Shown here in pieces: positions 37,914-63,972 of a DNA stretch of 64,000 nt. The stretch spans positions 384,001-448,000 of the forward strand of contig CAVPSB010000016.1 of NCBI GenBank assembly GCA_963708025.1. The letters run 5' to 3'. The position numbers and the translations under genes are program-made. The first letter of the stretch is position 1; each line of letters opens with the position of its first letter. This DNA is from an uncultured Candidatus Rokubacteria bacterium. GTDB taxonomy: Bacteria; Methylomirabilota; Methylomirabilia; Rokubacteriales; DASRDR01. Under the pieces are notes generated by a model. That model searched no databases. It worked only from the letters and a program-made list of their open reading frames with translations, and had not been told where the DNA came from.

Positions 37914-37946
37914 CATGACGAGCCCATGACGAGCCCATGATGAGCA
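37914..37946 (+). repeat. 11-bp tandem repeat x3 at gene start
   Basis: CATGACGAGCC-CATGACGAGCC-CATGATGAGCA. Confidence 0.75.
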
Positions 37947-38993
37947 AGGACGCCGCGTCACCGAATCAGGGAGCCCCCGGCTCCGAGCCCTCCGACGCCG
38001 CGGTGCTGGCGATGCTGCAGCGGATCGCGGCGCGGCACGGGCCGACCGCCGCCGGCCGGAGGGCCCAGCCGGCCGCCCCCGGCCCACCAGCGCCGTCGAT
38101 CGCCGCCCCGGCGTCCGGCAAGCCCGCGAGCGAGAGCCGAGAGCCCTCCCTCCGGCGGCGCCGCCTGGGAGAGATCCTGCTCGACGAAGGGCTCGTCACC
38201 AAGGAGCAGCTCGAGGCGGCGCTGCGGCTCCAGGCGGAGGAGCGCCCCGGTGTTCCGGTCGGCCAGCTCCTGGTCTATCAGGGCGCCATCACCCAGCGCC
38301 AGCTCGGCGCCATCCTCGACAAGTATCGCCTGGGGAACTTCCTGGTCGAGACGAACGTCATCTCCGAGCAGCAGCTCGAGACTGCGCTGCAGCGGCAGAA
38401 GCGGACGAACCACCCGCTCGGCAACGTGCTCGTTCAGCTCGGGTTCCTCACCGAGCCGCAGCTCCGCCAGGCCCTCGCGACGCAGCTCGGGATCGCCTTC
38501 GTCGACCTCGACCGGATGACGCTCGATCCAGGGCTCGCCCAGGTGATCGACCGCGACTATGCCCGGCGTCACCGGGTGGTCCCGATCCGTCGCACGGCCG
38601 ATCGCGTCACGATCGCCATGGACGATCCCGCCGACTACTCGGTCATCGGGGCGCTGTGGGTCTCCGCGGCGTGCAAGATCGACGTCGTCACCGCCACCGG
38701 CGCCGCCCTCCGGCGAGCCTTCGGCCGCGTCTACGGGGATCGCCCCGCCCGCGCCCCCGGTGGCGCCCGACGACCCGGCGATGCGCGAGCTCCGGGAGCG
38801 GCACACCGAGACGGTGCGACGGCTGACCGCGCTCCGAGCCGCGTCGGAGCGGGTTCGCCACGATCTCGACGTCGGCGCCCGCCTCCTGCAGGGGATCGAG
38901 CGACCCTCCGGGGAGCCGACGGCGCCGCCGGCCGGACCGCCTCCGGCCTCCGCCCCCGGCACTCGCCCCGGCGACAGATCCCCCCAGCCCTGA
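37937..38993 (+). CDS. Stand-alone MshEN/GspE-N (T2SSE_N) protein without ATPase; probable coiled-coil tail after a frameshift near 38755
   Basis: RRLGEILLDEGLVTKEQLEAALRLQ, YRLGNFLVETNVISEQQLETALQRQ, PLGNVLVQLG, IAMDDP; no Walker A. Confidence 0.8.
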
Positions 38994-39035
38994 CAATCGG
39001 CCGTGGGCGGCCGTGGGGGTTGGTAAGATGACCCC

Positions 39036-54792: not shown

Positions 54793-55521
54793 GTGAAGAC
54801 CATCCTGCTCATCGAGAACGATCCCGCGATTCTCCGCCTCGAGCAGCAGGTGCTGCGCGACGCGGGCTATGCCGCGGACCCCGTGGGCGACGGCCAGCAG
54901 GCGCGGACGAAGCTGAAGGCCACCCCCTACCACGGGATCGTGCTGGACCTCACCGTGGCCGGCAGCGAGGGCTACACCCTGGCCGCGCAGATCGGCGGAC
55001 TGGACGCCAACCGGCACACGCCCCTCATCATCCTCGGCTCGGACGAGCCCGACGGCCGGCGGCGAGCGTTCGACGCGGGGGCCATGGCCTTCCTTCCCAA
55101 GCCGTTCACCGCCGAAGCGTTCCGCGCCGTGATCCACAGCGTCATCAGCCCGACCGGGCCTCGAGCGCCCGCCGCCCCCGGCGTCGCGATCGGACGGGCG
55201 TCCCGCCCGGTCGCGCCGGCCCCGCCGGCGGCCTCGCCGGCCGAGGCGGAGCTCGAGGCGGGGCCGGTGGACGGATCGATCCCGGTGAGCTTCCAGGGCG
55301 GACCGGTCTACTGGTGTCCGCCGAACGCCGAGGGCACGTGGCGTTGTGGCCGCTGCGAGCTCGGCGTCATCGGGGCGGCGGAGGTCGGGAGCAGCTGCGG
55401 CATCTGCCAGGCCGCAGTCGTGCAGTTCCGGGCAGGATCGGGATCGGGCATCGGGTGGCTGATCGTCTTCATCGCGCTCGGTCTGCTGATCGGGTGGGCG
55501 GTGCTCGAGTGGTGGTCGTAG
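54793..55521 (+). CDS. Receiver + Pro/Ala linker + Zn-ribbon + C-terminal TM helix
   Basis: ILLIEND, IVLDL, LPKPF; CGRC...CGIC; GWLIVFIALGLLIGWAVL. Confidence 0.75.
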   Translation: MKTILLIENDPAILRLEQQVLRDAGYAADPVGDGQQARTKLKATPYHGIVLDLTVAGSEGYTLAAQIGGLDANRHTPLIILGSDEPDGRRRAFDAGAMAFLPKPFTAEAFRAVIHSVISPTGPRAPAAPGVAIGRASRPVAPAPPAASPAEAELEAGPVDGSIPVSFQGGPVYWCPPNAEGTWRCGRCELGVIGAAEVGSSCGICQAAVVQFRAGSGSGIGWLIVFIALGLLIGWAVLEWWS

Positions 55522-55654
55522 CTCGCCGGAGACGGTAACGGCGGGGAGGCCACCGCCCCTGCCCGCCCGGGCCCCCTTCCAGGCTCGGCAGGCCTGGGCC
55601 TCCGGCCGCGCGGAGACGACGACGCTTCCCGGAGGTCGACCCGCTGGCGGGTCC

Positions 55655-57454
55655 TCAGTCCCTGAACCTGCGGGCCAGTCGCTCGAGCCCGTCCACGACG
55701 TCCTGCCGTTCCCGGAGGAGGAGCTGAAAGTGCTTCTCCTGCTCGCGCAGCGCTTGCATTGCCGCCTCGTGCTCCTGCAACAGGGTCGTGTACTGCGACT
55801 GTAGCCGTGTCAGCGTTTCTTCGATCTCTGCTTGTCGCATGGATGTCTCCTGTCGCGTCAGCAGGCCGTCCCCGCGCCTCTGCCGCGCCTGGCCGCTTTC
55901 CGGCCCCGCATCGATCACTGCTGCGGCCTGCGCCGGGCCCGGGCCGACCTCCCTCTGATAGGAGAAGATCGCCTCCCGGATCTCAGCGTGCGTCGCCGTC
56001 ACCACCTCGATGGCGCATCCGGTTCGCTCGTGCAGGTCCGCGATGACGTCGACATCGGTGGGGTCGTCCATGACGACCGTCAGCCCCGCCGCCGTCGCCC
56101 CGATCGGAAGGACGCGATGTCGCTCCGCGAACTCGACTGGGACCAGAACGGCGAGCTTCGGGTCGATCAACGTTCGGTCCAGCTCGACGAATCCGATCCG
56201 GAGCTGCTTGCACAGCGCTTCTCTGAGCGTTCGCTCAGACAGATAGTCCATGTGGATCAGGACCTCACCGAGCCGGAGCCCGCTCGCTTGCTGCTCTCGG
56301 ACCGCGTCCTGTAGCTGTTCCTCCGTGATGACATTCGTCTCGACCAGCAGGTCCCCGATCCGATACTTCCTCTTGTGTCCTTCGAGGAGGTCGTTGAACT
56401 GACGGCGGATCACCCGCTGCCGATCGAGCGGGAGGTGCCCCAAGGGCGTGCCGGGCTTCTCCTGAGCCTGCGCCTGGAAAGCCGCCTGAAGCCGACCTTC
56501 GGACACGAATCTTTCACCGAGAGCGAGCTCGTCGACCGGGCGATGCGGCCGGCCATCGGTGCTTCCCGGGCCGTCGCGCTCCAGGTCGTGGACGGCTGTC
56601 CGGGCGCCGTTCGGCGCGACGATCGCGAGTCGGCCCCCAATCGCCAGATCGGAGGTCGCCGACGCGCGACGGCCACTCCCGATCGCCGCATCCCGGAGCG
56701 CCGACCAGAACTCCCCCGCGGAGTGGAAAGGGGCGCCGCCGCGCCGGAGGGACGCCCTCAGCACCGCTTCCACCTCACGCGGCACATCGAGTCGCCGTTC
56801 GGCCGCGAGTGTCAGCCAGGGTTCGCCCGACAGCATCGCGTACGCCGCCAGACCCAGCGAATGGACGTCCGCCCAGGATGACCCGTGCTCCACAAGCCTC
56901 GCCCGCCCAGCCAGCCGGCGTGCACGCGAGCCCGCCGCCACCGCCGCGGACGTCGGCAGCCCGAAATCCCTCACTCGGACCCGCAGCGCACCAGCCGGGT
57001 CCCGGGCCGGGAAGATCGAATCGAGGGCGATCGACCGATTGCGCACGCCGAACTGCTGCCCGATGTGCAGGACCCTGGAACACTGGCCGACGATGTCGAT
57101 CACCGTCGCCAGCGCCAGCGGACCATGGACCAGAAGCCGGCTGGCCACGCTGGGTCCGTCCAGCCACTCCGTCACCACGTACAGGCGGCCGTCGGCCGCC
57201 TGCTCGCATTCGTACACCGGCGCGATGTTGGGATGACGGATCAGCGCAATGGTCGCGATCTCACGGCGGAGACGCGCCGAGCTCCCACCCTGACCAGCCA
57301 GGGCGGGCGACAGGACCCGGATCAGCACGCGCCGCCGCTCCATGTCGAGCTGCTCGGCCAGCAGGGCGGTGCTCAACCCATCCGAGCCGAGCTCGGCGAT
57401 GGGTCGGTACTCCCCGGCCAGGATCTTCACCAGGCTCACCCCGATGCCACCCAT
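55655..57454 (-). CDS. Ser/Thr pseudokinase - MshEN/GspE-N - coiled-coil fusion (start uncertain)
   Basis: RHPNIAPVY, LYVVTEWLDG, DFG, DVHSLG..Y.MLSG; YRIGDLLVETNVITEEQL, RLGEVLI, VMDDP; heptad tail. Confidence 0.75.
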   Translation of the reverse strand: MGGIGVSLVKILAGEYRPIAELGSDGLSTALLAEQLDMERRRVLIRVLSPALAGQGGSSARLRREIATIALIRHPNIAPVYECEQAADGRLYVVTEWLDGPSVASRLLVHGPLALATVIDIVGQCSRVLHIGQQFGVRNRSIALDSIFPARDPAGALRVRVRDFGLPTSAAVAAGSRARRLAGRARLVEHGSSWADVHSLGLAAYAMLSGEPWLTLAAERRLDVPREVEAVLRASLRRGGAPFHSAGEFWSALRDAAIGSGRRASATSDLAIGGRLAIVAPNGARTAVHDLERDGPGSTDGRPHRPVDELALGERFVSEGRLQAAFQAQAQEKPGTPLGHLPLDRQRVIRRQFNDLLEGHKRKYRIGDLLVETNVITEEQLQDAVREQQASGLRLGEVLIHMDYLSERTLREALCKQLRIGFVELDRTLIDPKLAVLVPVEFAERHRVLPIGATAAGLTVVMDDPTDVDVIADLHERTGCAIEVVTATHAEIREAIFSYQREVGPGPAQAAAVIDAGPESGQARQRRGDGLLTRQETSMRQAEIEETLTRLQSQYTTLLQEHEAAMQALREQEKHFQLLLRERQDVVDGLERLARRFRD

Positions 57455-57525
57455 GCCGTTCGAGCGAGACTGATGCCCGTTGGCGACGATGCTGCCCCTC
57501 CCTCGGACGTCACGGTCGTCCGGTC

Positions 57526-57876
57526 TCAACATCCGAGGGCCCTTTGCACCGTCGCGCGCAACGTGTCCAGGGAGACCGGCTTCTCGAGCCGCGCGACGAT
57601 GTTCGGTCTCGACACCAGGTCATCCGGCAGGTCGGAGAGAAACCCCGACAGCACGACTACGGGAATCTGGCGGGAATGCGCCAGGAACTGGATCCCTGAC
57701 ATGCGCGGCATCCGCAGATCGAGGATGATCACGTGGGGGTACACCTGCTTCGCCAGCTCGAGGGCCTCCACCCCGTCCCGAGCGGCAACCACGGCGTAGC
57801 CGGCATCGGTGAGGACACGCACCAGGAGTCGCCGGATGGCCTTGTCGTCGTCGGCCACGAGGATCCAGTGGCGCAC
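57526..57876 (-). CDS. Single-domain response regulator (CheY-like)
   Basis: WILVADDD, ILDLRMPRMSG, VLSG, LEKPV. Confidence 0.88.
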   Translation of the reverse strand: MRHWILVADDDKAIRRLLVRVLTDAGYAVVAARDGVEALELAKQVYPHVIILDLRMPRMSGIQFLAHSRQIPVVVLSGFLSDLPDDLVSRPNIVARLEKPVSLDTLRATVQRALGC

Positions 57877-58078
57877 CTTGTCGCCTTCAGGCCCATCGAC
57901 TCCGCCGTCCTGGGCACCCTTCCTCCCTGGCTGATCTCGCCGGGTCCTGTCCCCGAGCCTCAGTCGGGCCGCCTCCACTGGTCTTCGCCTCATCAGTCCC
58001 CACGATTCGCGCCCGCACCCGTCGTGGCCGCCAGCGCGAACCGCAGCTTTCGTCGTCGTGGCAATCCACCACGTTATG

Positions 58079-58093
58079 GCAAGCCGGGTGCCA
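58079..58093 (-). promoter_or_regulatory. sigma54 -24/-12 promoter
   Basis: Minus strand TGGCAC-CCGGC-TTGC, exact consensus, upstream of the receiver/pseudokinase pair. Confidence 0.65.
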
Positions 58094-58295
58094 GTCTACG
58101 GCTCGGCCGAGATAGGTTGACCTGGCGGTGAGTTAGCCAGAACGGAGCCAGCCGAGAGCCGTGGCGACCGGTAAGGTATGGACCGGCGCCGCTCAGCTCC
58201 GCGCCGGTTTGCCGGTTTACCGGGTCGCGGGTGGAAGCCGGTTCGCGGACGTTGCCGGACAGTTCGAGACGAAAGTGGCCCGAGAAGTGCCGATG

Positions 58296-58667
58296 CTACG
58301 ACTTGAGTCGTCGCAGGAGGGCTTCCAGCTCCCCGGCGGCGAATTCGCGATCCTGCCGAAGACCCTCATGGCCTTCGCGAAGTTCCCGATGGGCCTGGAG
58401 GAGGGTCTCATGCTCGTGCTGGAGGGCTTGGTACTGAGTCCGTAGAGCTGCGAGGGTCCGTCCACTCTCCTCGGATTCCCGGCGCAACCGCTCGAAGCTT
58501 TCCTGAAGCTCGAGGAGCTCTCGCTCTTGCCGCTCCGAACGCTCGCGCAGCTCGTCGTTCGCCTTGGTCAGCCCATCGAACTGCTTGACGAAGGCATCCC
58601 AGTCAGCGACGACCGATCTGAAGACTTCAACGATCTGTGTGAGGCTCTTCGGACTCGTCTCGCCCAT
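58296..58667 (-). CDS. Coiled-coil protein; C-terminus resembles the tail of the pseudokinase-MshEN protein
   Basis: GGGAGG RBS; heptad-rich; TLAALRTQYQALQHEHETLLQAHRE...LEALLRRLKS. Confidence 0.7.
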   Translation of the reverse strand: MGETSPKSLTQIVEVFRSVVADWDAFVKQFDGLTKANDELRERSERQERELLELQESFERLRRESEESGRTLAALRTQYQALQHEHETLLQAHRELREGHEGLRQDREFAAGELEALLRRLKS

Positions 58668-58781
58668 GCCCGATCCTCCCTCGCGGATGGCCATACGGGG
58701 GCCCTTCTTGTACCCTTCTACGCCCTCCAACCCTGCAATGTGGCCGCGTCTCCAGACACTCTGGCCGACCGATCCTCGCCT

Positions 58782-59228
58782 TCAGGCCGGGGTCGGCAAG
58801 ATGCCCTCCGGTGAGCCGGAAGGGGCTGACCGAAGGTCACCGGATCTCGGTGACAGTGCGGCAGCGACGGCCTCCAGCAAGTTGCGTGTGCGAATCGGCT
58901 TAGGCAGGCGGGCCACGATGTTGAGCCCGTCACCGACGCGGAGATCCCCGTCGAGGAAGCCGGAGATGATGAGGACGGGAATTCGTTTCAGCATCGCGGA
59001 ACCACGCAGCTCCTTGAGAATGTCCTCGCCCGAGAGCCCGGGCATGCGGAGGTCGAGGATCATCAGGTCGGGGATGATCGCCTGCATGAGACCGAGAGCC
59101 TCCAGACCATTGTCGGCCGACAGCACCCGGTATCCGGCCCGGGTCAGCTCTTCAACCCAGAGTTCGCGAACCGCCGGATCGTCATCGGCTACGAGGATCC
59201 ACTTCCGCGACCCGGCACCGACGTTCAT
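58782..59228 (-). CDS. Single-domain response regulator, paralog of 57526-57876
   Basis: WILVADDD, ILDLRMPGLSG, IISGFL..NIVARLPKP. Confidence 0.88.
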   Translation of the reverse strand: MNVGAGSRKWILVADDDPAVRELWVEELTRAGYRVLSADNGLEALGLMQAIIPDLMILDLRMPGLSGEDILKELRGSAMLKRIPVLIISGFLDGDLRVGDGLNIVARLPKPIRTRNLLEAVAAALSPRSGDLRSAPSGSPEGILPTPA

Positions 59229-59293
59229 TTCCGCTGACAAGGCTTACCCGCCTCCTGGAGAAGAGATGTTCTCTTTCAGAGCCGGTCGCCTCA

Positions 59294-61099
59294 TCACGAC
59301 TCGTCCAAGACCGACTCGTCCAGCGTCACCCGCAGGACTTCCTGGGGGGTCGTGATGCCCTCGATCACCTTGAGCAGGCCGGCCTCGCGGAGGGTCATCA
59401 TCCCCCGCCGGCGGGCAGTCGCCCGGATCTCGCTCGTGGAAGCGCCACGGGCGATGAGTTCGGCGATGTCAGCGGACGTCTCCATCACTTCGTAGATGGC
59501 GATCCGGCCTCGCATCCCGGTGTGCCGGCACGCCGAGCACCCTCGCCCCCGATAGAAGGTGCACGGGCCAGGCCCGGCGACCCGGTGCCCGAGGGGCACG
59601 AGGCTCGCCTCGTCCCCCTCGTAGGGCTCGCGGCACTGGACGCAGATCCGGCGCACGAGTCGCTGGGCGACGGTCAGCCGAAGGCACGATGCCAGGAGAG
59701 TCAACGGGACGCCCATGTCGAGCAACCGGGGAATGGCCGAGGGACAATCGATCGTGTGCAGAGTGGTGAGAACCAGGTGGCCGGTGAGCGCCGCCCGGAT
59801 GCCGATCTGGGCCGTCTCGGCGTCCCGCATCTCCCCGACCAGCAGCACGTCCGGGTCATGGCGGAGGAAGGTGCGCAGGATGACGGCAAAGCTCCGCCCG
59901 ATGTCTTCGTGCACGGCCACCTGCGTCACGCCGTCGAGGTGGTACTCGACCGGATCCTCGACAGTCATGATCTTCACTTCTCGGGGACGTAGCCGGTCGA
60001 TCGCCGCGTACAGGGTGGTGGTCTTCCCGGATCCGGTCGGCCCGGTCATCAGGATCATTCCGTGCTGGGCGTCGATCGCCCGGGTGAACCTGTCGAGGTT
60101 CGAGGCCCGAAGTCCGAGATCGACCAAGCTGAGCCGCACGGCCTGCCGGTCGAGCAGTCGCATGCACAGGCTTTCTCCGGACACCGTCGGCATGCTGGAG
60201 ACCCGGACGTCGATCTCTCGGCCCTCGTAGCGCAGCCGCAGCCGCCCATCCTGCGGCAGGCGGCGTTCCGCGATGTCGAGATTGGCCATGATCTTGATCC
60301 GGGAGACGATTCCCGCCTCCACCCGCTTGGGCAACGCCTTGATCCGCTGCAGGAGGCCATCCAGTCGGTATCGCACATGGAGTCCGGCCTCGAAGGGCTC
60401 CAGGTGAATGTCGGAGGCGGACTGGGCGATCGCATCCGCAAAAATCGTGTTCACGAGCCGGATCACCGGCGCCTGGTCCGCCCAGGCCTTCAGGTCCGAC
60501 AGGTCGGCGGCGCTCCCGGGGGCCGCCCGGTCAACGATCTCGACCTCGCGGGCATCGACGTCCGTGTCCAGAAGAGCATCGGCCCGAGGGGTGTCCTCGG
60601 GCTGCTTCCCGATCGCTCGGCGAATCGCCGAGGAGGCGGCGATCGCCGGGATGACGCGCAGACTGGTCGCGAACGTGACATCATCCATGGCCTGAAGATT
60701 CGTCGGATCCGCCATGGCGACCGTCAGTGATCCGTTGATACGGCGGACAGGCACGAGATCGTATTTTTGAGCGATCCGCAACGGGATGAGTCTCAAGACG
60801 TCCGGGTCGATGATGTCCTCGAGAACTGTCACGACGGGGATCGCCAGCAGAGCGGACAGGTGGTCGACCAGCTCCGGTTCGGTGATCAGCCCGAGACGCA
60901 CCAGCACGAAGCCGAGCTTCTCGCCGGTCTCCTCCTGTTTACTCAACGCCCGGGCGAGCTCGTCCGGCGTGATGGCCCCACGCTCGAGCAGGAATTGACC
61001 GAGCCGCCGTCGAGGTCGGGCCCGGGCCAGTCCCCCCGGGACCGGGTCAACGATCTGGCCGGTGGACTCGCCCGAAGACTCCCGTCGGGAATGTCTCAT
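59294..61099 (-). CDS. GspE/PilB-family assembly ATPase with N-terminal MshEN
   Basis: RRLGQFLLERG, ASDIH, DIAERRLPQDG, GPTGSGKTT, EDPVE, DPDVLLVGEMRD, TLHT, CxxC..CxxC; ATGA overlap with the upstream gene. Confidence 0.92.
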   Translation of the reverse strand: MRHSRRESSGESTGQIVDPVPGGLARARPRRRLGQFLLERGAITPDELARALSKQEETGEKLGFVLVRLGLITEPELVDHLSALLAIPVVTVLEDIIDPDVLRLIPLRIAQKYDLVPVRRINGSLTVAMADPTNLQAMDDVTFATSLRVIPAIAASSAIRRAIGKQPEDTPRADALLDTDVDAREVEIVDRAAPGSAADLSDLKAWADQAPVIRLVNTIFADAIAQSASDIHLEPFEAGLHVRYRLDGLLQRIKALPKRVEAGIVSRIKIMANLDIAERRLPQDGRLRLRYEGREIDVRVSSMPTVSGESLCMRLLDRQAVRLSLVDLGLRASNLDRFTRAIDAQHGMILMTGPTGSGKTTTLYAAIDRLRPREVKIMTVEDPVEYHLDGVTQVAVHEDIGRSFAVILRTFLRHDPDVLLVGEMRDAETAQIGIRAALTGHLVLTTLHTIDCPSAIPRLLDMGVPLTLLASCLRLTVAQRLVRRICVQCREPYEGDEASLVPLGHRVAGPGPCTFYRGRGCSACRHTGMRGRIAIYEVMETSADIAELIARGASTSEIRATARRRGMMTLREAGLLKVIEGITTPQEVLRVTLDESVLDES

Positions 61100-61632
61100 G
61101 CCGACGGGCCACGCTGCAGCCGGGGTCCCGGCCGCATCAGTGGTTGCTGCAACCAGGCGAGCGCCCGCCGGGGAAGCGAAGGTCGCCGTCGGGCCGTCCC
61201 AGCCGGCAGCGCAGTCGGGTGGCCAATCGGCAGGTCCCGAATTCGGTGGATGGCCGTTGCGACGGCATAGACACGGAGATTGTTCGAGGCCGGATCGGCC
61301 GGCACCAGGAAAACACCCGGCCCGCCCCCGATGTCGCATCGGGTCGAGCCGACCAGGACTTCGCCATCCTTGAAGGTGATCTCGACTCGCCGGCCGGGCA
61401 GAGCTGCGGTATCCGAGAACCGCTTCCGTTCGTCGTATCGGGCGTTCCCGGCGAGATCGCGAACGAGAAACACCGCCTTCAGCTCGGCGACGAGGACTGG
61501 GGTGGGATCAGATGACGCGTCGAGCGTCGGGAACACGTGAAAGCGACCCCGGCTCTCGAAGTCGTAGGTGTAGCCCTTGACCAGTCTTCCATCCGCGTAG
61601 CGGACGACAACCTTTGCTGCCGGACCGATCAT
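61096..61632 (-). CDS. DUF6982-like protein
   Basis: KVVVRYADGRLVKGYTYDF, LKAVFLVRDL.GN, GRRVEITFKDGEVLVG, PADPASNN.RV. Confidence 0.7.
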   Translation of the reverse strand: MIGPAAKVVVRYADGRLVKGYTYDFESRGRFHVFPTLDASSDPTPVLVAELKAVFLVRDLAGNARYDERKRFSDTAALPGRRVEITFKDGEVLVGSTRCDIGGGPGVFLVPADPASNNLRVYAVATAIHRIRDLPIGHPTALPAGTARRRPSLPRRALAWLQQPLMRPGPRLQRGPSA

Positions 61633-61737
61633 CGTGACACTCCCCACCCGACCCGCGAGCGCCATGTCCCGCGGGCCAACGGTTGCGACATGTACCGCTT
61701 CAATCTGGAAGGCCCCTCGTGCAGCCTGGCGGTCAGA

Positions 61738-61753
61738 TGCCACCTTCGTGCCA
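61738..61753 (-). promoter_or_regulatory. Probable sigma54 -24/-12 promoter
   Basis: Minus strand TGGCAC-GAAGG-TGGCA about 105 bp upstream of the DUF6982-like gene. Confidence 0.5.
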
Positions 61754-62241
61754 ATCAGTCACCGGTCCGTCAGGACTGCCCGCATGCGCAACCTTGACGT
61801 GTGCGCTTTACATGCGCCCACGACAGCCATCGTGGTCGCGTCGGGGATTCCGAGCGAGCTGAAGTGGTCAGATATTCACCGCTTCGGACAGATCGGGACC
61901 AGCGGCCCCGGGCAGAGCGACACGTCACCGCTCTCGGATCCGGGACCTCAGTTCGGGACCTCCCGCCCACCAGGGGAAGCCGGAAGACCCATTCCTTCGA
62001 CACACTCTCAGAGGAAGAACAGTTGCCGTGAGCTGCGCCGAGCTAATGGCCCAATCGGAGGGCCTCAGGCGACCCGAGGGTTTTCCAGGAATCGCTCCAT
62101 TCGGAAAACCGGAACGCCGTTTCCGAATCTTTGTGATCCTCGTTGCATAGACCAGCGAAGCGCGCTCGGTGGGCGCCTGTCTGCCGGAGGCCTTCGAGCT
62201 CCCTCCCTGGAGACGAGCGCCGGAATCTCGGATCCGGGCGG

Positions 62242-63972
62242 TCAGCGAGGCGGCGTCGAGCGGAGGCGGGCGGTCTCCTCTCCGAAGATCGTCCAAGTGG
62301 CGGGGTCGATGGCGACGCCGTACTCGCGGCGAGCGTAGTCGACGCTGATCTTCTCCTCGCGGACGTCGCGCAGGACGCGCTCGGGGTCGCGGGTGAAGGG
62401 ATCGCCCCAGCCGCCGGCGCCGGCCAGGACGTGGCGGAAGACGTCCCCCCGCCGGAGCGTCAGCGTGCACTTGGCCGGCAGCTCGCGGCGCTCGCCGTCC
62501 GGGTCGAGGAGGTTCTGCGAGGGCGTGCCGTCGCGGCCGCCCTGGAGCCCGTAAGGCAGGAAGCGCCGGCGGTCGGTCCGGAGCTGGAGCGTGCCCTCCG
62601 CGTTCTCGAAGCGGTACTCCCGCGCAAGCGCCAGGCCGCCCCGGAACCGCCCCGGCCCCCCGGAGTCGGGGAGGTAGCCGTAGCGCCGGATCACGATCGG
62701 GTACTCGGACTCGATCACCTCGATCGGGTTGTTCGAGAAGTTGACGACGGAGCTCGAGCAGGCATCCACCCCGTCCTTCGCTGGCCGCCCGCCCCAGGAG
62801 CCGAACAGGAACTCCAGGAAGACGAAGGGCCGGCGCTCCGCGTCGTAGCCGCCGATCGACACCCCGGTGTCGCCGCCGACCTCGCAGGCAAAGACCCGGT
62901 CGGGCGCGACCTGGGCCAGGGCGCCGAAGACCGCGTTGGCGATCCGGAAGCCGGTGAGGCCGCGGGCCGCGACCGACGCCGGCATCACGGGATTGACGAC
63001 GGTCCCGGGCGGGGCCACCACCTCGATGGGACGGAAGTACCCCTCGTTGTTCGGCGGCTCGCCGCCGACCAGGTGGCGGACGCAGGCATAGACGGCGGAC
63101 TTGGTGAAGGGCAGCGGCGAGTTGATGGCGCCCTTGACCTGGGCCGCCGAGCCGGTGAAGTCGGCGATCAGCCGGTCGCCGGTCACGGTGACCGCGACCG
63201 TGATGGGGATCGGGTCGGGGTCGATCCCGTCCTCGTCGATGTGGTCGGTGAACCGGTAGACCCCGTCGGGCATCGCGCGGATGGCGTGGCGGGCCAGCCG
63301 CTCGGCCTGGTCGAGGAGGGCGGCCGTGCAGGTGGCGAGGAGCCCGCCGCCGTACCGGGCGAGCAATCCCAGGTAGCCCCGCTCGCCGGTGAGGCAGGCC
63401 GCCACCTGGGACCGCACGTCGCCCAGGACCTGGCGCGGCACCCGGACGTTCCGGTCGATCAGCTCGAACAGCGCCTCCACCGGCGCCCCGGCCGCGTACA
63501 GCTTGAGCGGCGGGATGCGCAGCCCCTCCTGGAAGATCTCGGTGGCGTCGCAGCCGTTGCCGCCGGGGGTCTTGCCGCCCACGTCGAGCTGGTGGCCGAT
63601 GCTCGCCGACCAGCCGGCGAGGGCGCCGTCCGCGAAGATCGGCTTGACGATGTAGAAGTCGGGCAGGTGCGTGCCGCCCTCGTAGGGGTCGTTGAGGATG
63701 AAGACGTCGCCGGCCCCGATCCGCCCCGCGAACTTCCGGCGGATGGCGGCCATGGCGTCGGGGATCGAGCCGAGGTGGAGCGGGAGGGTCAGCCCCTGGG
63801 CGATGAGCCGGCCCTCGGCGTCGCACAGGGCGCAGGACATGTCCATCGCGTTCTTCAGGTTGTTCGAGTAGGCCGTTCGCACCAGCGAGATCGCCATCTC
63901 GTCCACGATGGCGTCCAGCGCGTTCTTGACCAGCTCGAGGAGGATCGGATCGGTCGCGGTCCGCGGGCTCAT
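62242..63972 (-). CDS. Hydantoinase B/oxoprolinase family protein
   Basis: EMA..L.RTAYS, NDPYEGGTHLPD, GHQLDVGG, QEGL, NNPIEVIE, DSGGPGRFRGG, GAGGWGDP. Confidence 0.93.
   Translation of the reverse strand: MSPRTATDPILLELVKNALDAIVDEMAISLVRTAYSNNLKNAMDMSCALCDAEGRLIAQGLTLPLHLGSIPDAMAAIRRKFAGRIGAGDVFILNDPYEGGTHLPDFYIVKPIFADGALAGWSASIGHQLDVGGKTPGGNGCDATEIFQEGLRIPPLKLYAAGAPVEALFELIDRNVRVPRQVLGDVRSQVAACLTGERGYLGLLARYGGGLLATCTAALLDQAERLARHAIRAMPDGVYRFTDHIDEDGIDPDPIPITVAVTVTGDRLIADFTGSAAQVKGAINSPLPFTKSAVYACVRHLVGGEPPNNEGYFRPIEVVAPPGTVVNPVMPASVAARGLTGFRIANAVFGALAQVAPDRVFACEVGGDTGVSIGGYDAERRPFVFLEFLFGSWGGRPAKDGVDACSSSVVNFSNNPIEVIESEYPIVIRRYGYLPDSGGPGRFRGGLALAREYRFENAEGTLQLRTDRRRFLPYGLQGGRDGTPSQNLLDPDGERRELPAKCTLTLRRGDVFRHVLAGAGGWGDPFTRDPERVLRDVREEKISVDYARREYGVAIDPATWTIFGEETARLRSTPPR

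Follow-up and report, generated by a model that had tools for sequence, protein, structure and literature searches.

The licensing of extension ATPases by second messengers and protein cofactors is under active study in pilus biology (PMC11656802), and several described systems share parts with the locus reported here. Supplementary Table 4 of Wang et al. 2016 (PMC5013675), a source on MshE/PilB-type receptors that bind cyclic di-GMP (c-di-GMP) through an MshEN domain, lists fusions of MshEN with the T2SSE ATPase domain and with a Hanks-type kinase, each with a receiver (REC): REC-MshEN-T2SSE in Geobacter metallireducens (Gmet_3473) and Pkinase-MshEN-UNK-REC in Stigmatella aurantiaca (PKN11). 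Some of the MshEN proteins listed there have no recognisable motif, and one tested domain was non-binding. In the PilB-PilZ-FimX system of Xanthomonas citri, PilB is controlled by a small beta-barrel adaptor together with a separate c-di-GMP sensor (PMC8389850; PMC11656802). Cyanobacterial PilB1 is bound or steered by the Sm-fold protein Hfq and by the PATAN-CheY regulators PixE and PixG, Hfq binding to a C-terminal extension peculiar to this ATPase (PMC7690835), and Acinetobacter baylyi carries TfpB, an extra PilB-family ATPase beside the housekeeping PilB that may act on the same pilus (PMC11656802). The present locus is a cluster of six genes, all on the minus strand (55655-61632), in a window of 64,000 nucleotides (the whole stretch of DNA that was analysed) from an uncultured Candidatus Rokubacteria bacterium (contig CAVPSB010000016.1, positions 384,001 to 448,000). 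It encodes a DUF6982 protein, a GspE/PilB-type ATPase with MshEN, two receivers, a small coiled-coil protein and a pseudokinase-MshEN-coiled-coil protein; each frame is open and the motifs are intact. The best-placed, if still tentative, reading of these sequences is that the cluster provides an accessory PilB-like motor with its own cofactors, which would be tuned by c-di-GMP and by phosphorylation and would serve a pilus or a machine like the type II secretion system (T2SS) encoded elsewhere.

The cluster has the same parts as the MshEN fusions of PMC5013675, namely MshEN with T2SSE, MshEN with a Hanks-type kinase, and receivers, and differs from the listed fusions in that its receivers are separate genes, its kinase is dead and bears conserved arginine substitutions, its kinase-linked MshEN is without the turn glycine in both motifs, and a coiled-coil tail replaces UNK and REC. 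The existence elsewhere, as single proteins, of the domain partnerships found here in neighbouring genes supports functional coupling among these genes. A literature search returned no described function for the fused REC-MshEN-T2SSE or Pkinase-MshEN precedents, no publication combining MshEN with a pseudokinase, and none combining Rokubacteria, type IV pili and c-di-GMP. Unlike the Xanthomonas system, the cluster has no PilZ, EAL or GGDEF domain in any of its six proteins; the presumed adaptor would be a tandem Sm-like DUF6982, the presumed sensor would be the pseudokinase-MshEN protein, and the ATPase is an orphan paralog. By this analogy, the resemblance to the PilZ adaptor is functional only, with no PilZ domain involved. 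In comparison with cyanobacterial PilB1, the two halves of DUF6982 are like Sm/Hfq barrels (Z 3.5-4.7), a match that is weak and generic, and the receivers, unlike PixE and PixG, are without a PATAN domain. The ATPase also differs from TfpB, as it fails the TfpB model NF053534 (418.3 bits, cut-off 850) and is accompanied by its own signalling genes and sigma-54-type promoters.

The ATPase gene (59294-61099, minus strand) encodes 601 amino acids (aa) with matches to T2SSE (427.9 bits) and MshEN (69.1 bits). All the expected ATPase motifs were intact: Walker A (GPTGSGKT, 353), the Asp box (EDPVE, 381), the Walker B/Glu region (VLLVGEMRD, 419-426), the His box (LTGHLVLTTLHT, 438-449) and a tetracysteine zinc site (CVQC at 486 and CSAC at 520); the catalytic and cysteine positions were invariant in a 35-sequence alignment. 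The c-di-GMP-motif pair (60848-61006, minus strand; residues 32-84) consists of RLGQFLLERGAITPDELARALSKQ and KLGFVLVRLGLITEPELVDHLSAL, separated by a 5-residue spacer. Under the motif definition of PMC5013675, the first motif has one mismatch, an Ala at the first (L/V/I) position after Gly, and fits the relaxed motif, while the second has Lys for Arg and a final Leu for Gln; the pair scored 61.6 bits with the NCBI c-di-GMP-motif model NF053729 (cut-off 38). The nearest solved structures were those of Geobacter and Myxococcus PilB (E-values of 8.5e-159 to 5.3e-151, Geobacter first), followed by GspE (6.1e-114).

With the curated family models, the cluster ATPase scored below both the PilB equivalog cut-off (TIGR02538, 581.5 bits, cut-off 675.65) and the GspE cut-off (TIGR02533, 564.6 bits, cut-off 630.25), as did its orthologs P0003, P0011 and P0013 (PilB scores of 571-615), whereas the ATPases on contigs C31 and C3 of the same genome, used as controls, passed the PilB (732.9) and GspE (655.5) models, respectively. 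Four full-length GspE/PilB-type ATPases and two PilC/GspF genes were found in the genome, and both of the latter adjoin other ATPases, in a canonical pilB-pilT-pilC locus on C31 and in a gspE-gspF-secretin locus on C3. A profile search of the genome detected T2SSF only on C31 and C3, and secretin only on C3, C15 and C31, with neither on the contig of the cluster; none of the 46 window open reading frames (ORFs) scanned was a pilin or pilus-machine gene, no dedicated pilin model having been used. Because the genome's only platform genes lie beside other ATPases and the cut-offs were failed, the cluster ATPase, which is 51% identical to the genome's own PilB, is taken as a genuine orphan paralog and not as half of a split operon. 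An earlier note on this DNA had likewise proposed an orphan ATPase, giving the ordinary PilB of a split operon as the alternative, and had reported no PilC/GspF, secretin, pilin or histidine kinase gene in the window; both statements held, the one on pilins as far as general scans go. On the contig of the cluster (C16) but outside the window (266000-299000), a further GspE-like ATPase of 442 aa without MshEN was observed at about 270 kb beside two histidine kinases, and a PilT-like ATPase cluster with a 631 aa MshEN protein and kinases nearby was observed at 295-299 kb.

A search of 5.8 billion clustered proteins yielded 14 ortholog clusters of the ATPase (68-94% identity), exclusively from metagenome contigs. 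The next matches, at 61% identity or less and mostly at 55-58%, were ordinary PilB proteins that their sources ascribe to Rokubacteria/Methylomirabilota and to other soil phyla. A PilB/GspE phylogeny had been proposed as a check on the orphan, and in a quick maximum-likelihood search the window ATPase and its 14 orthologs formed one distinct clade (SH-aLRT, a likelihood-ratio branch test, of 100; stem of 0.64) nested among PilB-like sequences; as drawn by this tree, the clade is small, PilB-derived, long-branched and fast-evolving. No ortholog (at least 60% identity) was present in 250 other genomes of the phylum, where the best identity was 58%, and the best identity in 20 other genomes of the family was 57%; the tallies over the 250 or 251 phylum genomes given here and below take in five genomes flagged as unpublished (G076, G034, G218, G217 and G044), from which no individual locus was used. 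In sister genera of the family (loci L058-L060; genomes G238, G235 and G243), a receiver gene precedes the canonical pilB and a partial second ATPase match, probably pilT, follows it; the REC-PilB arrangement may therefore be ancestral in the family.

The DUF6982 gene (61096-61632, minus strand; 178 aa) matched PF22478 with 94.4 bits (cut-off 24.5, E-value of 7.8e-27), and its stop codon overlaps the ATG of the ATPase gene as ATGA, in agreement with the translational coupling claimed earlier for these two genes. The distribution of the pair was inferred by matching orthologs of the ATPase and of DUF6982 found in the same source and on contigs of equal size. In this way the pair was implied on at least eight other contigs: P0003/P0130 (3476 bp), P0241/P0244 (5681 bp), P0010/P0134 (4171 bp, both on two contigs), P0004/P0139 (2533 bp, ENA), P0006/P0141 (3251 bp), P0247 and P0249/P0121 (3896 bp), P0251/P0122 (9521 bp) and P0001/P0265 (3933 bp); a match of 467295 bp is the window's own record and is outside this count. 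In five of the pairs both members are diverged from the window proteins, to which the ATPase is 72-75% and DUF6982 53-59% identical. The contig of 2533 bp is 91% taken up (2304 bp) by the complete ATPase and DUF6982 genes, which must therefore be adjacent on it.

Evidence for the remainder of the gene order was narrower. REC1 was seen to accompany the ATPase and DUF6982 in close relatives only (about 90% identical or more), on the contigs of 3933 and 3896 bp. In a single case, a pseudokinase ortholog (P0258, 47%) and a DUF6982 ortholog (P0158, 51%) share a source and a contig size (7932 bp); nothing else hints at conservation of the entire cassette outside close relatives. The full six-gene order was seen in this genome only, close relatives sharing part of it. 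A structure prediction of the ATPase-DUF6982 complex gave a median score of 0.33 (runs of 0.33, 0.01 and 0.40), against 0.00 for the best of three controls, and was classed as "weak support"; the runs agreed in at least 40% of contacts and the partner had a predicted local distance difference test (pLDDT) value of at least 66. In the benchmark of this score, 116 of 157 solved complexes attained the mark, as did 2 of 215 mismatched pairs; among those attaining it, scores of 0.60 or less were seen for only 18 of the 157 solved complexes, plus both of the passing mismatches.

The AlphaFold2 model of DUF6982 (pLDDT of 77.7) consists of two five-stranded small Sm-like barrels (residues 6-57 and 81-133) followed by a disordered tail. 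The protein could be aligned with 20 phylum members and 37 database members; a tail motif, LPxRxLAWL, is conserved in the longer proteins of about 170-190 aa, with W160 and L161 at 90% or more; the motif was present in members that share contigs with the ATPase and also in phylum copies without an adjoining ATPase. Foldseek against the PDB gave no match at an E-value of 1e-3 or better, tandem-Tudor and Sm/Hfq proteins appearing at 0.013 or above; VIA-align wide gave none at Z of 5 or more, with Sm/LSm/Hfq proteins at the Z-scores given above; and the search of the ESM Atlas returned DUF6982 clusters and nothing else. No function was drawn from the fold. The family is large, with 2205 representative clusters (50% identity, E-value of 1e-3 or less), no fewer than 530 relatives on genome contigs from many phyla, and members in 35 of the 251 phylum genomes, and a literature search found no mention of it. 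REC genes lay within 6 kb of DUF6982 in 9 of 80 loci from many phyla, and flanked it on both sides in 4 of 29 phylum loci. Fusions were sought in 55 longer proteins taken from the best 150 representatives (E-value of 1e-6 or less): six carried PilZ (one of them also DnaJ), one REC, one FHA, two a second DUF6982, and 45 nothing else. On account of its fusions to PilZ, REC and FHA, DUF6982 could plausibly act as an adaptor or output module in second-messenger and phospho-signalling.

The pseudokinase-MshEN-coiled-coil gene (55655-57532, minus strand) encodes 625 aa and contains a degenerate Hanks-type kinase domain (56663-57427, minus strand; residues ~36-290), in which the beta3 Lys is replaced by Arg72, HRD by RNR (163-165) and the catalytic-loop Asn by Ser, while DFG is kept. 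These substitutions were invariant in all nine family members (36-93% identity; R72, R164, R166 and D189-F-G), and the label "pseudokinase" given to the protein from its letters alone was upheld, the Lys, HRD and Asn being replaced in every one. Homology to kinases is solid: the family profile matched StkP and PknB (E-values of 1e-29 to 1e-26, positions 8-287), along with the N-domains of PilF, PilB and MshE; the NCBIfam model PknB_PASTA_kin was matched at 2.6e-13 and Pfam Pkinase with 28.1 bits, below its cut-off of 31.7. Judged by its sequence, this pseudokinase is old and conserved, and its pocket has been remodelled and is rich in arginine. Its c-di-GMP-motif pair (56204-56362, minus strand; residues 391-443), made up of RIGDLLVETNVITEEQLQDAVREQ, a 5-residue spacer and RLGEVLIHMDYLSERTLREALCKQ, scored 68.2 bits with NF053729 (cut-off 38) and covered 53 of its 53 positions; a second MshEN_N-like pair lies upstream, in degenerate form in the window protein and in intact form in more distant members. 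The C-terminal coiled coil (55658-55855, minus strand; residues ~560-625) is strongly conserved in nine of nine members (L574, L577, Y581, L584, H588 and E589, among others). The family is rare, with nine clusters at an E-value of 1e-30 or less among the 5.8 billion proteins. No full-length member occurred in the 250 other phylum genomes, in which matches were confined to one half of the protein, either the kinase or MshEN plus coiled coil (35-42% identity). A PATAN domain was considered and rejected, as the weak DUF4388 match (E-value of 2e-4) falls on MshEN_N-like helical repeats.

Two further MshEN proteins were observed in relation to this one. The first is encoded within the window (37919-39031, plus strand; 370 aa; MshEN E-value of 1.4e-14, with weak DUF4388 and DUF2949 matches), is 41% identical to pseudokinase residues 278-537, and has a third-codon-position GC content (GC3) of 0.85, nearer to that of native genes; related proteins of 450-500 aa are encoded in tandem pairs by sister genera within the family. 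The second, an 829 aa protein without a kinase domain on contig C24 (60000-74000, locus L152), is the closest genomic paralog of the MshEN half, and no lead came from it. Near it lies an NtrC-type sigma-54 activator in two overlapping ORFs (REC with the AAA core, and the AAA lid with HTH), a split that could be a frameshift or an assembly error.

The two receiver genes, REC1 (58782-59240, minus strand; 152 aa, TTG start) and REC2 (57526-57993, minus strand; at most 155 aa, start uncertain, receiver from residue 44), matched Pfam Response_reg at E-values of 9.3e-20 and 9.3e-19, respectively. They are paralogs (47% identity over 126 aa, E-value of 5e-29), and both keep the receiver residues, D19/D20, D63, S93 and K113 in REC1, and D49/D50, D82, S116 and K138 in REC2. 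Between them, the coiled-coil gene (58296-58730, minus strand; at most 144 aa, start uncertain) had only sub-threshold coiled-coil matches in Pfam. Its protein is 34% identical over 94 aa (E-value of 2e-5) to the C-terminal coiled coil of the pseudokinase protein (residues 535-624), a likeness that, for coiled coils, is weak evidence of homology. On these alignments the cassette looks like two paralogous REC-plus-coiled-coil pairs. The stop codon of REC2 overlaps the ATG of the pseudokinase gene as ATGTTGA. The public annotation of the source contig has proteins of 178, 601, 152 and 625 aa, which fits the chosen starts, and the exact 152 aa REC1 protein is present in public records; the ATG starts tried for REC2 (57993) and REC1 (59228) and the three starts tried for the coiled-coil gene matched no protein in the public collection.

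Two sigma-54-type promoter sites were located by sequence. The first, a -24/-12 element (TGGCACGAAGGTGGC, 61739-61753, minus strand), is followed by the DUF6982 start codon after about 105 nt, and the second (TGGCACCCGGCTTGC, 58079-58093, minus strand) lies in the gap of about 300 bp from the coiled-coil gene to REC2. The pattern TGGCAC-N5-TKGC matched the 64 kb window at these two places only, one directly upstream of DUF6982 and the other directly upstream of REC2, each on the minus strand; 0.34 matches would be expected by chance, and two or more occurred in 5 of 100 shuffles. Across the 8.17 Mb genome, 59 sites had the N5 spacing compared with 14-24 at each of N3, N4, N6 and N7, an enrichment indicating that the motif acts in this organism as a true sigma-54 signal; the genome carries rpoN and 40 matches to the sigma-54 activator domain PF00158, some of which are pieces of one gene. 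No sigma-70-like promoter was found across 55400-62400. The cluster is accordingly read as two putative sigma-54-dependent units, DUF6982-ATPase-REC1-coiled coil and REC2-pseudokinase, and the "sigma54" label of the earlier note found its counterpart in these two placed and oriented sites. Upstream of the first promoter, the intergenic region 61754-62241 is unusually long (~490 bp) and of lower GC; an 18 nt palindrome (CCACGATGGCTGTCGTGG) precedes the -24 element by 82 nt, and the two copies of a direct repeat of 20 nt occupy 61932-61951 and 62226-62245.

The six genes differ in composition from the rest of the window, with GC3 values of 0.73-0.84 against a mean of 0.935 (standard deviation of 0.026, minimum of 0.888) for 24 other Pfam-supported window ORFs. 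This suggests, from base composition, that the cassette was acquired horizontally or is at least compositionally atypical. Both the lower GC with weaker codon bias and the six co-oriented genes with their domains had been described before in this stretch, and both descriptions agree with these measurements and with the gene coordinates given here.

If the cluster does provide an accessory motor, its operation might be as follows. A sigma-54 activator would turn the cassette on, and the ATGA overlap would keep the synthesis of DUF6982 matched to that of the ATPase, which DUF6982 would bind as a small adaptor, in a role likened to that of PilZ in the PilB-PilZ-FimX system or of Hfq on cyanobacterial PilB1. 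REC1 and REC2 would be phosphorylated by a kinase encoded elsewhere and, by analogy with the natural fusions, may act on the ATPase and on the pseudokinase scaffold. The dead kinase-MshEN protein would sense c-di-GMP, and its conserved coiled coil could let it self-assemble or join the small coiled-coil protein. The output would be a motor recruited, activated or blocked at the type IV pilus of contig C31 or at the T2SS-like machine of contig C3. The earlier note had proposed a regulatory cassette of this kind, linking phosphorelay and c-di-GMP signals to a pilus or secretion machine encoded elsewhere. This proposal is supported in part, by the orphan status of the ATPase, by both motif pairs passing NF053729, by the intact receivers and by the fused precedents; its weaker side is gene order, whose conservation is narrow.

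A number of observations weigh against an accessory motor of this kind. No pilin, PilC, PilM-Q or secretin gene is linked to the cluster, and an extension ATPase usually serves no machine but its own (PMC11656802). The signalling inputs are also absent from the neighbourhood: none of the genome's 89 HATPase_c matches is in the window, which would have marked a histidine kinase, no PF00158 gene is in the window, and no activator-binding motif common to the two promoter upstream regions was found. In the pseudokinase protein, the turn Gly of the c-di-GMP motifs is replaced by Asn400 (invariant) and by Asp429, which fails the relaxed [GAS] position, the motifs being otherwise complete. The pairing with DUF6982 is likewise incomplete, as an equal-sized DUF6982 contig was found for 5 of the 14 ATPase cluster representatives and not for the other nine. 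Six of these nine are on contigs of 2.8 kb or less; P0011 (19867 bp), P0013 (7944 bp, NCBI MGH7264985.1), P0009 (4362 bp) and P0014 (3744 bp) are without DUF6982 among the matches listed, and the two roomiest contigs (19867 and 7944 bp) should have had space for it. Conversely, close DUF6982 orthologs on contigs of 9640, 7511, 8653 and 7033 bp have no ATPase partner among the matches listed. A GspE-type ATPase was near DUF6982 in 0 of 29 phylum loci (1.5 kb flanks) and within 6 kb of it in 0 of 80 loci from many phyla, and clustering of the neighbours in these 80 loci gave no conserved partner, the largest real cluster comprising at most eight loci. A scan of metagenomes returned nine loci, of which the sole likely ortholog was a diverged ATPase fragment (L061, 66% identity) that is followed by a membrane-protein ORF and carB, with no REC or coiled-coil genes; the region upstream of the ATPase is not on the fragment. 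The weak complex prediction, with one of its three runs at 0.01, belongs on the same side. The two checks that bear on the ATPase-DUF6982 partnership were divided: on gene order, the pair was recovered on other contigs, by inference, and the six-gene order and the association in other DUF6982 loci were not; on the predicted complex, the median exceeded the controls and one run scored close to zero.

It is possible, although on balance rather unlikely, that the cluster serves a signalling function independent of pili, in which the PilB-like hexamer would be a nucleotide/c-di-GMP switch and not a filament motor, its state being read by DUF6982, the receivers and the pseudokinase scaffold to control, for example, exopolysaccharide (EPS) or biofilm. 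The lack of linked machine genes and the presence in the genome of two platform genes for four ATPases fit such a switch, the long stem and the failed equivalog cut-offs suggest a changed function, DUF6982 is fused elsewhere to PilZ, REC and FHA, and Myxococcus xanthus PilB is described as regulating EPS independently of the pilus (PMC11656802). Nevertheless, all the catalytic and zinc motifs of a motor are kept, which a pure switch might lose, and no output domain or EPS gene is linked to the cluster in the window.

The chances are lower still for a negative regulator or decoy, an ATPase that would compete with the housekeeping PilB or mix into its hexamers and so stop or re-time extension upon sigma-54 induction. 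Mixed assemblies are conceivable at 51% identity to the genome's PilB, conditional sigma-54 expression fits, and interactions between extension ATPases, with a two-motor PilB/TfpB case, are described in PMC11656802; there is, however, no inhibitory sign in the sequence, in which the catalytic motifs are intact, and the ATPase is not TfpB by its score. Finally, an ordinary PilB/GspE of a split operon, or a decaying remnant of horizontal acquisition, is very improbable: the orthologs are named "type IV pilus assembly protein PilB" by their sources, the low GC3 suggests a foreign origin and the cluster is rare, not being found in the 250 other phylum genomes, but the ATPases of the complete pilBTC and gspEF loci pass the curated cut-offs that the cluster ATPase fails, the six frames are open with intact motifs, and the architecture and key residues are kept by orthologs down to 68% (ATPase), ~53% (DUF6982) and 36-48% (pseudokinase) identity, which argues for selection.

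An accessory motor remains a plausible interpretation of the sequences; the cassette would be a rare module, while a PilB-family motor with cofactors is itself of a known kind. A more specific proposal, which we regard as doubtful though worth stating, is that DUF6982 represents a new class of adaptor for PilB-family ATPases, with tandem Sm-like barrels and the LPxRxLAWL tail for docking, and that the cassette is a sigma-54-induced plug-in motor gated by c-di-GMP, through two MshEN sensors (one of them on a pseudokinase), and by phosphorelay, through the two receivers. If this were true, the plug-in motor could reprogram the resident type IV pilus or T2SS-like machine, or could be a filament-free, ATP-driven signalling hexamer. 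The cluster would add a distinct PilB-derived clade outside the pilus operon, place DUF6982, which is widespread and without literature, for the first time in a concrete context with a concrete partner, and contribute a conserved scaffold of pseudokinase and MshEN in which arginines have reshaped the kinase active site. Being few and testable, its proteins would also allow the convergence of c-di-GMP and phosphorelay inputs on a single motor to be studied in a soil phylum that lacks a genetic system. Were its function independent of the pilus, it would extend the idea of a signalling ATPase, which has as yet been reported for Myxococcus PilB only.

The cluster is flanked by a convergent REC-membrane protein gene and a Na+/H+ exchanger gene on one side and by a hydantoinase B gene on the other, all with native composition and with functions unrelated to those of the cluster. 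No direct repeats bounding the island were found at its borders. In the region 55400-62400, the Rfam scan returned no family at threshold, the lone match being a chance miRNA (E-value of 0.92), and the terminator scan gave nothing informative; a GC-rich hairpin without a T-run (GACCCG-CCAG-CGGGTC, 55638-55653, minus strand), missed by that scan, was seen by eye directly 3' of the stop codon of the last gene. A role in anti-phage defence was considered and rejected, as PADLOC yielded generic kinase-domain matches (PD-T4-6) and a weak match in a REC region, with no match at system level. Contigs 90-99% alike to the stretch were present in two soil sequencing runs, extending over all of its 30 bins in X2 and over parts of it in X1; they indicate related strains only and have no bearing on transcription. 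A third receiver gene, convergent with the cluster (54793-55521, plus strand), encodes 242 aa with REC, a Cys-rich stretch and a C-terminal hydrophobic segment, and its native GC3 (0.92) places it probably outside the island.

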